From assembly GCF_044647545.1 (NCBI RefSeq), contig NZ_CP172818.1: DNA of 64,000 nt, one strand, 5' to 3'. Of the stretch, positions 13,753-26,127 are shown piece after piece. Below the pieces are notes generated by a model. The model saw only the letters and a list, made by a program, of their open reading frames with translations, had not been told where the DNA came from and made no database searches. Each line of letters begins with the position of its first letter. Within the stretch, counting starts at the first letter, position 1. This stretch comes from Escherichia coli (GTDB taxonomy: Bacteria; Pseudomonadota; Gammaproteobacteria; Enterobacterales; Enterobacteriaceae). A program made the translations under genes and the position numbers.

Positions 13753-13780
13753 ATGTCATCGACACTAGTGACGATGACAT
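13753..13780. promoter_or_regulatory. inverted repeat atgtcatcg-N10-cgatgacat upstream of hydN, candidate FhlA upstream activating sequence
   Basis: motif TGTCAT..CGACA read in sequence; related copies at 25421-25475 and 26095-26127; hydN-hypF is formate/FhlA regulated in E. coli (established). Confidence 0.45.
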
Positions 13781-13793
13781 GTGTTGACAATGT

Positions 13794-14804
13794 TTATTGC
13801 GAAAGAGCAATGAGGGAGCCGCGGCGGATCAGTTTTCCGCTGAAGGTTTTCGGCGGTGAGAAATCCCCGCCATCGAGCATAAAAATCAGCCGTCCAATAA
13901 TTTCCTGAATCATCTCAGTTACCGGAATTTTTACGCTGGAGAGCGCCGGAACGGTGTAGGGGGCAATTGCGATATCATCGAATCCGATAACTGACACCTG
14001 CTCTGGCACCGCTACGCCGCGCTCGTGCAACGCTTTCATCGCACCTATCGCCATATCGTCGTTACTGGCAACTAACGCGCTAAATTTAGCCCCACGTTCG
14101 AGCAACGTTTCTACCCCTTCGGCCCCGCTGGCGGGCGTCCATTTACCGTTAGCGATAAGTTTTTCATTGAGCGCAATACCATGCTGCGCCAGCGCGTCTT
14201 TATACCCGGCAAGACGTTCAACGCTGGTGGGGGAATCCATCGAGCCGGTAAGGAAAGCAATCTCCTGATGTCCGGCGTTTATCAACTCTGCCACGGCGTT
14301 AAAGCTGGTCTGTTTATGATCGCACCAGACGCTATGGCTGCTGTTTTTGCGCAGGCGGCGATTAAGCACCATTATCGGCTGACTGTGTGCGTCAATGATG
14401 TCATCAATCTCATCCACGCTTAAAAAACGCGGGTAAATCATAATGGCGTCGCAGCGCAAATCCAGCAGATACTGAATCGCCTGGCGCTCTTCTTCGGCGC
14501 TGTGTTTACCATCTGCCAATAGCAACTGTCGCCCTTTCTCTTCAGCCATTCGCGCGGCATGAAACAGTAGTTCACTAAAATAAATGCCGTGGTAAAGCGT
14601 GTTGGTCACTACCAGCCCCAGCGTCTGAGTACTCTTCGCCGACAGATTGCGCGCCAGCAAGTTTGGGCGGTAACCGCTCTCTTCTACCGCCTGAAACACG
14701 CGATCTTTAGTCTCCTGGCTGACGTAGCCATTACCTGAAAGCACGCGGGAAACGGTCGCTTTTGAAACCCCGGCGCGCTTCGCCACTTCCAGCATCGTCG
14801 TCAT
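13794..14804 (-). CDS. ascG: LacI/GalR-family repressor of the cryptic asc operon
   Basis: ORF 13794..14870 trimmed to MTTMLEVAKRAGVSKATVSRVLSG (LacI-type HTH). Confidence 0.85.
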   Translation of the reverse strand: MTTMLEVAKRAGVSKATVSRVLSGNGYVSQETKDRVFQAVEESGYRPNLLARNLSAKSTQTLGLVVTNTLYHGIYFSELLFHAARMAEEKGRQLLLADGKHSAEEERQAIQYLLDLRCDAIMIYPRFLSVDEIDDIIDAHSQPIMVLNRRLRKNSSHSVWCDHKQTSFNAVAELINAGHQEIAFLTGSMDSPTSVERLAGYKDALAQHGIALNEKLIANGKWTPASGAEGVETLLERGAKFSALVASNDDMAIGAMKALHERGVAVPEQVSVIGFDDIAIAPYTVPALSSVKIPVTEMIQEIIGRLIFMLDGGDFSPPKTFSGKLIRRGSLIALSQ

Positions 14805-15062
14805 CATTTTCATCCCTTTACACGCAATCAACGCAGTGTACTGCACCGTTTGCCGATTGTCCTTGCGCAATCGGCGGGAAAAATATTCAGGTGACCGGTT
14901 TCACAAATATAAAAAATGAACAATTAACTCTCTTGCTTATTTAGTGACAACTATTCATGATTTTGTGAAACCGGTTTCCTAATTCCGTTTCAGCATCGGC
15001 ATTTTCCGTCACGTCGACTGATAACAACTACATCTACCCTACTGATAACAGGATAAAATCCG

Positions 15063-16520
15063 ATGGCCAAAAATTATGCGGCGCTGGCACGCTCGGTAAT
15101 AGCGGCACTGGGCGGCGTTGATAACATCTCGGCAGTCACGCACTGTATGACGCGTTTGCGCTTTGTTATCAAAGATGACCAGCTTATCGACAGCCCGACG
15201 TTGAAAACCATCCCCGGCGTGCTCGGCGTGGTACGTAGTGACAACCAGTGTCAGGTGATTATCGGCAATACCGTTTCACAAGCCTTTCAGGAAGTCGTCA
15301 GCCTGCTGCCGGGAGATATGCAGCCCGCACAGCCCGTGGGTAAACCCAAACTCACGCTGCGTCGCATTGGTGCGGGGATCCTCGATGCGCTGATCGGCAC
15401 CATGTCACCGCTGATCCCGGCGATTATCGGCGGATCGATGGTCAAACTGCTGGCGATGATCCTCGAGATGAGCGGCGTGCTGACAAAAGGATCGCCGACC
15501 TTAACCATTCTGAATGTGATTGGTGACGGTGCTTTCTTCTTCCTGCCGCTGATGGTCGCGGCTTCTGCCGCCATCAAATTTAAGACCAATATGTCGCTGG
15601 CGATTGCCATCGCGGGTGTGCTGGTACATCCGAGTTTTATTGAACTGATGGCGAAAGCGGCCCAGGGTGAACATGTCGAATTTGCCCTGATCCCGGTCAC
15701 CGCGGTGAAATACACCTACACGGTGATCCCGGCGCTGGTGATGACCTGGTGCCTGTCATATATCGAACGCTGGGTGGACAGCATTACACCGGCGGTGACG
15801 AAAAACTTCCTCAAGCCAATGCTGATTGTGTTGATTGCCGCACCGCTGGCAATCCTGCTGATTGGCCCGATTGGTATCTGGATCGGTAGCGCCATTTCGG
15901 CGCTGGTTTACACCATTCATGGTTATCTGGGCTGGCTTTCAGTCGCCATTATGGGCGCGCTGTGGCCTCTGCTGGTAATGACCGGGATGCACCGCGTCTT
16001 TACGCCAACCATCATTCAGACCATTGCCGAAACCGGCAAAGAAGGAATGGTCATGCCGTCAGAGATCGGCGCTAACCTGTCGCTGGGCGGTTCATCACTG
16101 GCGGTGGCGTGGAAAACGAAAAACCCGGAACTGCGCCAGACGGCGCTCGCAGCGGCGGCATCAGCCATTATGGCGGGGATTTCCGAACCGGCGTTATATG
16201 GCGTGGCGATCCGCCTGAAACGTCCGCTTATCGCCAGTCTTATCAGCGGTTTTATTTGCGGCGCGGTTGCCGGTATGGCGGGGCTTGCCAGCCACTCAAT
16301 GGCAGCGCCGGGGCTATTTACCAGCGTGCAGTTCTTCGATCCGGCGAATCCAATGAGCATCGTCTGGGTGTTCGCCGTCATGGCGCTGGCGGTCGTGCTG
16401 TCGTTCATCCTCACACTGTTGCTCGGCTTTGAGGATATTCCTGTTGAGGAAGCGACTGCCGAGGTGCGAAAGCATCAGAGCGCACAACCGACCGTCGCCA
16501 AAGAAGTAAGTCTTAATTGA
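15063..16520 (+). CDS. ascF: beta-glucoside (arbutin/salicin/cellobiose) PTS EIIBC
   Basis: 485 aa ORF with N-terminal EIIB motif ([10 protein letters not shown]) and polytopic membrane EIIC. Confidence 0.88.
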
Positions 16521-16528
16521 GGATGAAA

Positions 16529-17953
16529 ATGTCAGTATTTCCAGAAGGTTTTTTATGGGGCGGCGCGCTTGCCGCCAACCAGTCTGAAGGTGCGTACCGT
16601 GAAGGTGGCAAAGGGCTGACCACCGTCGATATGATCCCACACGGCGAGCATCGAATGGCGGTGAAACTGGGACTGGAAAAACGTTTTCAGTTGCGTGATG
16701 ACGAGTTTTATCCCAGCCATGAAGCGACGGATTTTTATCATCGTTATAAAGAAGATATCGCCCTGATGGCAGAGATGGGGTTCAAAGTGTTCCGTACCTC
16801 AATTGCCTGGAGCCGCCTCTTTCCGCAGGGCGATGAGCTGACACCCAACCAGCAGGGCATTGCTTTTTATCGCGCGGTATTTGAAGAGTGTAAAAAGTAC
16901 GGTATCGAACCGCTGGTCACGTTATGCCACTTCGATGTGCCGATGCATCTGGTCACCGAATATAGCTCCTGGCGTAACCGCAAGCTGGTGGAGTTTTTCA
17001 GCCGCTACGCCCGGACCTGCTTTGAAGCATTTAATGGTCTGGTGAAATACTGGCTTACCTTCAATGAAATCAACATTATGTTGCATAGCCCGTTCTCCGG
17101 CGCGGGTCTGGTGTTTGAAGAAGGGGAAAATCAGGATCAGGTGAAATATCAGGCCGCGCATCACCAGCTGGTTGCCAGTGCGCTAGCCACCAAAATAGCC
17201 CATGAGGTTAACCCGCAAAATCAGGTGGGCTGTATGCTGGCGGGCGGTAACTTCTACCCTTACAGTTGCAAGCCGGAAGATGTCTGGGCGGCGCTGGAGA
17301 AAGATCGGGAGAACCTGTTTTTAATCGATGTGCAGGCGCGCGGCGCGTATCCGGCTTACTCTGCCCGCGTATTCCGCGAAAAAGGGGTAACCATCAACAA
17401 AGCACCGGGCGATGATGAAATCCTGAAAAACACCGTCGATTTTGTCTCATTCAGCTATTACGCCTCGCGCTGCGCCTCGGCGGAGATGAACGCCAACAAC
17501 AGCAGTGCGGCGAATGTAGTGAAATCGCTGCGTAACCCGTATCTACAGGTAAGCGACTGGGGCTGGGGTATTGATCCACTCGGTCTGCGTATCACCATGA
17601 ACATGATGTACGACCGCTATCAGAAGCCGCTGTTTCTGGTGGAAAACGGCCTCGGCGCAAAAGATGAATTTGCTGCCAACGGTGAGATTAACGATGACTA
17701 TCGCATCAGCTATTTACGCGAACATATCCGCGCAATGGGCGAAGCGATTGCAGATGGCATTCCGCTGATGGGCTACACCACCTGGGGCTGTATTGATTTG
17801 GTTTCCGCCTCAACGGGTGAAATGAGCAAACGCTACGGTTTTGTCTATGTAGACCGTGACGATGCAGGCAACGGCACGCTGGCGCGCACGCGTAAGAAAT
17901 CGTTCTGGTGGTATAAAAAAGTGATTGCCAGTAATGGTGAGGATTTAGAGTAA
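16529..17953 (+). CDS. ascB: 6-phospho-beta-glucosidase (glycoside hydrolase family 1)
   Basis: ORF trimmed to [22 protein letters not shown]; GH1 signatures TFNEIN and ENG. Confidence 0.88.
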
Positions 17954-25475: not shown

Positions 25476-25525
25476 CGCCCATCCCCAAACAGGCGTAACG
25501 CCTGCAAAACGGGCAAAGCCTCAGC

Positions 25526-25987
25526 TCATGCTGCCGGGCTTTGTCCCTTTACCAGTTGGCTTAAATTCACCGGCACATTGTTTTCAATGGCGGTGTATAA
25601 GCTGTCGTAAACGCCAGCGATTTTTTCGAGATAGTGTTCCAGAACCTGTTCGCGATCGCGGATGTTGACCTTGCCATCAATCATGCCGTCAATGCTCAGT
25701 TGCGCCTGCGCAATCCGCTGTTTGTCTTCACCCTCTTTCGTTTCGACGTAATACTCGATGGTGTGGCTGTTAAAGCCATCCGCCAGGGTGACGTAAATAC
25801 GAAAATGTTCAAAAAGGACGAAACAGAGTTCTTTGTCCGGCGCGCAGCTCATGGCGTGATGCAGGCGCGCTTTCGATAACGTGATCCCCTGAACCAGCGA
25901 ATTGCAGTAGATGTGCCACTGGTCCTGTAGGCGACGATGCCGCTGTGCGATGTAATCGGCTTTCTCGCTTATTTCCCAAATAGTCAT
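25526..25987 (-). CDS. hycA: formate hydrogenlyase regulatory protein (anti-activator)
   Basis: 153 aa ORF MTIWEISEKADYIAQRHRRLQDQW, first gene of hyc operon. Confidence 0.9.
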   Translation of the reverse strand: MTIWEISEKADYIAQRHRRLQDQWHIYCNSLVQGITLSKARLHHAMSCAPDKELCFVLFEHFRIYVTLADGFNSHTIEYYVETKEGEDKQRIAQAQLSIDGMIDGKVNIRDREQVLEHYLEKIAGVYDSLYTAIENNVPVNLSQLVKGQSPAA

Positions 25988-26023
25988 TGTCAGGTTACCC
26001 GTTTAACAGAGATGCCAGCTTTA

Positions 26024-26039
26024 AGCATTTTTTATGCCA
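26024..26039 (-). promoter_or_regulatory. sigma54 -24/-12 promoter of hyc operon
   Basis: minus-strand TGGCAT-aaaaa-ATGCT about 40 bp upstream of hycA start. Confidence 0.6.
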
Positions 26040-26094
26040 ACTTTTAATTCATTGTTATTAAAACGATTTTTAAGCTAAAGATGAATTTCGTCGC

Positions 26095-26127
26095 CGTGTC
26101 GACGTGTCATTTCGACATCATCGACAT
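26095..26127. promoter_or_regulatory. gtgtcgacgtgtcatttcgacatcatcgaca: shared FhlA UAS candidate for divergent hyc and hyp promoters
   Basis: same TGTCATTTCGACA-type motif as 25421-25475 and 13753-13780. Confidence 0.55.

Follow-up and report, generated by a model that had tools for sequence, protein, structure and literature searches.

The 64,000-nucleotide stretch of Escherichia coli DNA analysed here (the window) covers the hypF-hydN / asc / hyc / hyp-fhlA region, and three groups of related inverted-repeat motifs within it are, with a probability that we put at about 90%, enhancers (upstream activating sequences, UASs) through which FhlA, the formate-responsive activator of the hydrogen-production genes, acts at sigma-54 promoters. 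Six lines of evidence lead to this assignment: matches to a published binding matrix, the spacing from sigma-54 promoters, the reported FhlA and sigma-54 dependence of the operons concerned, phylogenetic footprints, a cluster of the same kind upstream of fdhF, and an intact activator gene. The initial annotation had proposed FhlA UASs at these places, and that proposal is borne out; a reader of sequence alone can thus recover a real regulon motif. These enhancers are the ones long described for FhlA in the E. coli formate regulon, and nothing here is new. The UASs described for fdhF, hyc, hyp and hydN (Schlensog et al. 1994, Maier et al. 1996, Leonhartsberger et al. 2000) belong to the same organism and loci, with MG1655-identical sequences, the sigma-54 promoters and FhlA-dependent operons are likewise the same, and there is no substantive difference. 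Added to those descriptions are a 28-bp extent for the hydN palindrome, a distal element that reaches to 25441 in the hycA-hycB spacer, and the finding that a 14-bp matrix and a 16-bp consensus fit the hydN and fdhF cores badly. Because all motif sequences are identical in MG1655 (exact string search), results obtained in K-12 apply to the window; the RefSeq records covering the region carry no annotated binding-site features. The 1 kb surrounding motif groups two and three, which contains hycB, hycA and hypA, has a match of at least 95% identity in 5,425 of 5,426 complete E. coli genomes.

The sites are arrays of 5-bp YGWCR units (TGTCG, TGTCA, TGACG and their complements). The units mostly come in TGWC-N5/6-GWCA pairs and are often accompanied by extra flanking units. 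A 14-position matrix from 13 characterised FhlA sites (Schlensog 1994, Leonhartsberger 2000), with the consensus TGWC-RAWRAT-GWCA, is given in Table 2 of PMC7658346. Among the about 64,000 positions of the window its top match, at 16.6 of 16.7 possible bits, is TGTCGAAAATGACA at 25452-65 in the hycA-hycB spacer; TGTCGATGATGTCG at 26113-26, between the divergent hyc and hyp operons, ranks second, and the proximal hycA-hycB site, at 25421-34, ranks sixth. There is some circularity in this test, since these very sites probably went into the matrix; the second and third motif groups are published FhlA sites. Read-out of the sequence placed the first two groups where they had been proposed, with tgtcatttttgacg at 25421-25434 and tgtcattttcgacactcatcgaca at 25452-25475 in the second, whereas the third, given earlier as 26095-26127, is gtgtcgacgtgtcatttcgacatcatcgaca at 26096-26126, one base in at each end. 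The hydN site had been described with 9-bp arms; it is an inverted repeat, but a longer one, a 28-bp near-perfect palindrome (ATGTCATCGACAC TA GTGACGATGACAT) with 13 of 14 pairs matched and four YGWCR pentamers, in which TGTC-N3-GACA occurs twice. It is the top short-range inverted repeat in the entire window. The distal hycA-hycB site likewise reaches further than its read-out, to 25441, through its outer arms.

The sigma-54 elements noted earlier on either side of the hyc/hyp site are present in the sequence, and a third promoter, that of hydN, together with an IHF-like element, is added here (Table 1). From the predicted transcription starts of hydN (13672), hyc (26013) and hyp (26179), the hydN enhancer is centred at about -94, and the hyc/hyp enhancer at -98 from hyc and -68 from hyp, which are promoter-proximal placements (the typical looping distance being 70-150 bp). 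Chromatin immunoprecipitation with sequencing (ChIP-seq) located sigma-54 in E. coli at CTGGCATGATTTGTGAA for hydN, the same 17-mer as the window promoter, at TTGGCACAAAAAATGCT for hycA in MG1655 and at CTGGCACAATTATTGCT for hypA, respectively 27, 26 and 20 nt from the start codons (PMC4591121), and the predicted starts agree with these sites. The hyc promoter of the window differs from the MG1655 site by one single-nucleotide polymorphism (SNP), at 26034 in the -24 element (TGGCAT vs TGGCAC in MG1655). Immunoprecipitation on arrays (ChIP-chip) and expression arrays in Salmonella, where the hydN promoter homologue is TGGCACGATTCGTGTATA (PMC3844500), and genomic SELEX (gSELEX) in E. coli (PMC8743547) agree on the same promoters, so that sigma-54 occupancy at hydN, hycA and hypA is recorded in three studies (PMC4591121, PMC3844500, PMC8743547). 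Dependence on FhlA, formate and sigma-54 is reported for the operons hydN-hypF, hycA-I and hypA-E and for fdhF (PMC11841067, PMC3844500, PMC4987338), with 5.6- to 29-fold sigma-54 dependence of these operons in Salmonella (PMC3844500). For FhlA binding in front of fdhF and hyc, secondary literature refers to the primary studies.

Footprints were taken from one HycA scan that yielded 80 Enterobacteriaceae loci, from Escherichia to Kosakonia, with every value given as mean identity to the E. coli base. Identity is 0.78-0.94 in the motif blocks and 0.37-0.57 in the remaining intergenic columns. In the hycA-hypA intergenic region (75 non-identical sequences) identity is 0.78 in the enhancer, 0.81-0.82 in the two promoters, 0.71 in the IHF-like element and 0.40 in the remainder. 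In the hycA-hycB spacer (77 sequences) it is 0.94 in the proximal site, more than in every other site, 0.85 across 25452-25475, and 0.37 elsewhere; 16 bp of the proximal site, TTTCGTCAAAAATGAC, are invariant in 27 of 27 diverse species and at least 95% conserved across the 77 sequences, and the TGTCGA-N4-TGTCGA-N2-4-GACA layout of the distal site is kept in the 27. For hydN, the seven loci with the gene inside the fetched flank (Escherichia, Salmonella, Citrobacter and Intestinirhabdus) and the window copy gave eight sequences, over which the palindrome is 92% conserved (mean identity 0.92) and the rest of the upstream region 0.57; in Citrobacter the site forms an unbroken 24-bp palindrome, GTCATCGTCACTAGTGACGATGAC. 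Units of 11 bp of the hydN type, TGTCGATGACA ... CGTCATCGACA, occur in the orthologous hyc enhancer of Klebsiella and Raoultella, and the distal hycA-hycB core has a spacer of 3 or 4 bp depending on the orthologue; the differently spaced motifs therefore form one family.

Single-pattern searches gave only weak enrichment, the signal lying in shared words, clustering and location, and a cluster statistic was adopted for that reason: at least three YGWCR pentamers (TGTCG, TGTCA, TGACG, TGACA, CGACA, CGTCA) in 35 bp. Four such clusters occur in the 64 kb, three of them at the hydN, hycA-hycB and hyc/hyp sites, in intergenic regions that make up 0.75% of the window. Clusters of at least four pentamers number just two, at hydN and hyc/hyp, both beside sigma-54 promoters, with a simulated mean of 0.145. 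The 9-mer TCATCGACA has five occurrences where 0.59 are expected, and three of these are inside the three sites. Upstream of fdhF, which lies outside the window and was read in MG1655, there is a four-unit cluster whose centre precedes the predicted sigma-54 promoter start by about 107 bp. The sole cluster outside the formate-regulon sites, at 39665-39692 (three units, TGACGGGAATTTACTGGCGACACCGACA), has no adjoining sigma-54 motif that we could find and is taken as chance background.

The cognate enhancer-binding protein is encoded in the same window, as the initial annotation had indicated. FhlA is 692 amino acids long, with GAF, Sigma54_activat (AAA+ sigma-54 interaction; E = 1e-72), AAA_lid_14 and C-terminal HTH_8 domains in an intact architecture, the HTH_8 domain scoring 21.0 bits, slightly below the Pfam cutoff of 22 bits. 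FhlA binds one face of the DNA via a helix-turn-helix (HTH) at its C terminus (PMC11291172). By analogy with what is established for bacterial enhancer-binding proteins (bEBPs), FhlA oligomers would bind the YGWCR arrays through this HTH and, with formate bound, would hydrolyse ATP; looping of the DNA, aided by an IHF-type bend in the A/T-rich element, would bring FhlA onto sigma-54 RNA polymerase pre-positioned at the -24/-12 promoters of hydN-hypF, hycA-I and hypA-E-fhlA, where it would drive open-complex formation. The hydN site (-94) and the hyc/hyp site (-98 from hyc) would serve as classical proximal enhancers, and the hycA-hycB cluster would act remotely. Since transcription of hyp continues into fhlA, and HycA is an antagonist of FhlA, the region would form a node of both positive and negative feedback, and hycA itself has clusters of FhlA-type sites on either side. 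The enhancers are probably aided by IHF bending at the A/T-rich elements between enhancer and promoter. Those of E. coli hyc and hydN are nearly identical to each other and each has one mismatch to the consensus WATCAANNNNTTR; at hyc most other species have AATCAATGAATTAAA, and most other genera match the consensus exactly (AATCAATGAATTA). Among the listed activators of hyc and hyp is IHF (PMC2636881).

Table 1. Genes, enhancers, promoters and IHF-like elements of the formate-regulon region in window coordinates; the gene map was taken from the annotation of a 100%-identical strain and of MG1655, and identity is the mean identity to the E. coli base
Feature	Position	Strand	Sequence	Basis or remark
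hypF	10698-13037	-		annotation
hydN	13118-13645	-		annotation
hydN sigma-54 promoter	13683-13698	-	TGGCATGATTTGTGAA	-24 GG, atypical -12; identity 0.92
hydN IHF-like A/T-rich element	13702-13718	-	AATAACAGTAAATTAAA	between enhancer and promoter; identity 0.86; putative IHF binding
hydN-hypF enhancer	13753-13780	.	atgtcatcgacactagtgacgatgacat	sequence read-out
Possible fifth pentamer flanking the hydN palindrome	13781-13790	.	TGACA at 13785-13789	weak
ascG	13794-14804	-		annotation
ascFB	between ascG and hycI	+		annotation
hycI-hycB	about 18125-25401	-		annotation
Proximal hycA-hycB site	25421-25437	.	TGTCATTTTTGACGAAA (hyc sense TTTCGTCAAAAATGACA)	matrix rank 6; conservation
Distal hycA-hycB site	25441-25475	.	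outer arms TGCCGATGA / TCATCGACA around core TGTCATTTTCGACA	
hycA	25526-25987	-		annotated regulator (antagonist) of FhlA
hyc sigma-54 promoter	26024-26039	-	TGGCATAAAAAATGCT	sequence, conservation, ChIP-seq
hyc IHF-like element	26043-26059	-	AATAACAATGAATTAAA	between enhancer and hyc promoter; identity 0.71
hyc/hyp enhancer	26096-26126	.	GTGTCGACGTGTCATTTCGACATCATCGACA	four pentamers; second-best matrix match at 26113-26126
hyp sigma-54 promoter	26153-26168	+	TGGCACAATTATTGCT	sequence, conservation, ChIP-seq
hypA-E	from 26199	+		annotation
fhlA	29890-31968	+		cognate enhancer-binding protein; annotation and domain search

Five observations weigh against the assignment of all three groups to FhlA. 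The hydN core CGTCACTAGTGTCG reaches just 7.5 bits on the published matrix and ranks 137th in the window; the conservation of hydN was sampled in just four genera; the single patterns TGTCATTTTCGACA, TGWCRNNNNYGWCA and the fdhF core with mismatches are only weakly enriched in the window; no sigma-54 promoter lies within the usual 70-150 bp of the hycA-hycB cluster; and the 16-mer consensus CATTTCGTACGAAATG, quoted from Leonhartsberger 2000 in PMC4987338, matches the true sites at 11 of 16 positions or fewer and does not rank them first. The first of these is also seen at the classical fdhF core, CGTCAAAACTGACG, which scores 8.6 bits, and because both cores score low the matrix generalises poorly. 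The 16-mer was rejected as a discriminator, its best matches being in unrelated DNA (13 of 16 at 5079, 12 of 16 at 47647). That two published FhlA models describe the hydN and fdhF cores poorly is relevant to prediction of FhlA regulons and to hydrogen engineering in other enterobacteria. As points of mild interest there remain this misfit, the flexible unit spacing, and the fact that the hycA-hycB cluster is exceptionally conserved and oddly placed.

Counted from the hyc start the hycA-hycB cluster lies at +555/+585, and counted from the hyp start at -721/-751; being far from both promoters, it must act as a remote enhancer if it binds FhlA as proposed. In earlier work it is reportedly assigned to the hyp promoter (Schlensog et al. 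1994, Leonhartsberger et al. 2002). Its proximal site, the nearest relative of the fdhF core, lies 20 bp upstream of the hycB start codon. A nearer promoter was considered in the sigma-54-like motif TGGCACATCTACTGCA within hycA (25903-25918, minus strand, hyc direction, one mismatch) and rejected: TGG and TG are kept across the 80 orthologues, but the -12 GC belongs to a Cys codon for which species use TGC and TGT interchangeably, and the motif is for that reason probably a coding by-product. The strict conservation of the proximal site, its closeness to the hycB start and its distance of 0.55-0.75 kb from both promoters prompt a wider proposal, which we consider unlikely: that the cluster could be a shared intragenic enhancer coupling the divergent hyc and hyp promoters, with hycA looped out between two FhlA assemblies, or could also act at the hycB translation start. 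Separately, and just as tentatively, the variable spacers between TGTC and GACA halves (N3, N5, N6) suggest that FhlA could read flexible 5-bp YGWCR arrays and not a fixed 14-16-bp palindrome. In Kosakonia and one soil metagenome-assembled genome (loci L080, L082, L071 and L079; about 10530-10560) a GC-rich hairpin-like insertion of 17-20 bp, e.g. GCCCGTAAGCGGGC, separates the invariant proximal site from the ribosome-binding site of hycB; this FhlA-type site can thus be displaced from the start codon without loss. The hycA-hycB spacer of the window does not differ from that of MG1655.

The proximity of these repeats to hycB raises the alternative that they act in RNA, as an hyc mRNA hairpin affecting stability, processing or hycB translation. 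The E. coli hycA-hycB RNA is predicted to fold at -54 kcal/mol (z = -4.3 vs shuffles; z = -4.9 for the 86-nt core), with a long hairpin spanning the distal site, and the proximal site, the most strictly conserved of all, is just 20 nt from the hycB start. RNAalifold on the 27 diverse species, however, returned a weak consensus of -5.9 kcal/mol with a covariation term of +0.12 and zero compensatory pairs; the sequence of the conserved columns does not vary, which is what a protein site should show. Enterobacter and Lelliottia are without the 3' arm of the hairpin, yet retain the TGTCGA / TGTCGA / GACA units, and the same architecture recurs in the untranscribed hyc/hyp enhancer. RNA structure was accordingly rejected as the main explanation of this region for want of covariation over the 27 species, and is in our estimate very unlikely; the most reasonable view of the hairpin is that it results incidentally from the palindromic form of a protein site. 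A separate perfect hairpin, CAGGCG-TAA-CGCCTG at 25487-25501, stands directly past the hycA stop codon and, together with the distal FhlA site, accounts for the fold at z about -4.3; this segment is missing in Enterobacter, Klebsiella, Kluyvera and Kosakonia, where the spacer is shorter by 40-60 bp.

For hydN, it may be asked if the palindrome is the operator of another regulator, such as AscG or some other dimeric repressor, and merely resembles the FhlA sites. The poor fit to the published matrix, the TGTC-N3-GACA spacing, unlike the N5/N6 of the hyc cores, and the position of the palindrome against the ascG stop codon (the end of ascG is 14 bp away) could be read in this way. The palindrome is nevertheless kept in Salmonella and in Escherichia species without ascG, where hydN follows hycI or other DNA, and this persistence while the upstream neighbour varies (ascG, hycI, other DNA) excludes an AscG operator, which was rejected on that ground. 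A ChIP-verified sigma-54 promoter stands about 95 bp downstream of the palindrome, with an IHF-like element almost the same as the one at hyc, and serves an operon reported to be FhlA-dependent (PMC11841067, PMC3844500); the 11-bp units of the palindrome are present at the orthologous hyc enhancer of Klebsiella, and its central 14-mer is similar to the fdhF and hyfA cores. Together these leave an operator of another regulator scarcely any probability. In the flank of the palindrome TGTCA/TGACA is found in 8 of 8 sequences, although the alignment is not strict there and identity is 0.61.

That the likeness of the motifs is coincidental, with short low-information words such as TGTCA and CGACA recurring in A/T-rich intergenic DNA, would suit the modest enrichment of individual 14-mers, a total of four clusters against a chance expectation of 3.7, and comparable single matches in coding DNA (e.g. 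2493-2506 and 39665-39692), but location and conservation effectively refute it: three of the four clusters fall in 0.75% of the window, both larger ones are beside sigma-54 promoters, blocks are conserved across genera where the flanks are not, and fdhF has the same type of cluster. Its probability is negligible.

FhlA enhancers may be compared with those of other bEBPs with a Fis-type HTH, namely GlrR (TGTC-N10-GACA) and NtrC (TGCACC-N5-GGTGCA; PMC4987338) and NorR (GT-N7-AC, three sites; PMC2831303). In all four, multiple inverted-repeat half-sites precede a -24/-12 promoter by about 70-150 bp, and IHF often intervenes. FhlA and GlrR have the TGTC/GACA half-site in common, but the spacer is N5-N6 in FhlA sites (N3 in the hydN outer units) and N10 in GlrR, and the regulator and the signal (formate) differ. 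Unlike the other enhancers, the hycA-hycB cluster is inside an operon and far from both promoters. The HyfR/FhlA site upstream of the hyfA sigma-54 promoter lies outside the window: its pair CGACACGGGTGTCG resembles the hydN core CGACACTAGTGACG, although it is a single pair and not a cluster of four. At hyfA the paralogue HyfR is reportedly the dedicated activator.

Some further features of the window were noted. The third-ranked match to the published matrix, TGTCGATGGTGTCA at 2493-2506 (14.4 bits), is in srlE/srlB coding sequence (sorbitol phosphotransferase system genes), with a sigma-54-like TGGCATCATTATGGCT (2556-2571, one mismatch) 50 bp downstream; the pairing is probably chance. A gSELEX sigma-54 site has been placed between srlB and srlD, roughly 700 bp from the match (PMC8743547). 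The norV sigma-54 promoter TGGCACGCAATCTGCA (8015-8030, plus strand) is identical to the ChIP-seq site in PMC4591121 and, with the divergent norR, represents a second bEBP system within the window. Between ascB and hycI the strain FDAARGOS_497 has two additional small genes (12171-12801), encoding an HTH-domain protein and a hypothetical protein, that are missing from the window (equivalent 17954-18124) and from MG1655. In the hycA-hypA intergenic region the window has four SNPs vs MG1655 (26034, 26050, 26063-26064), all of them outside the enhancer.

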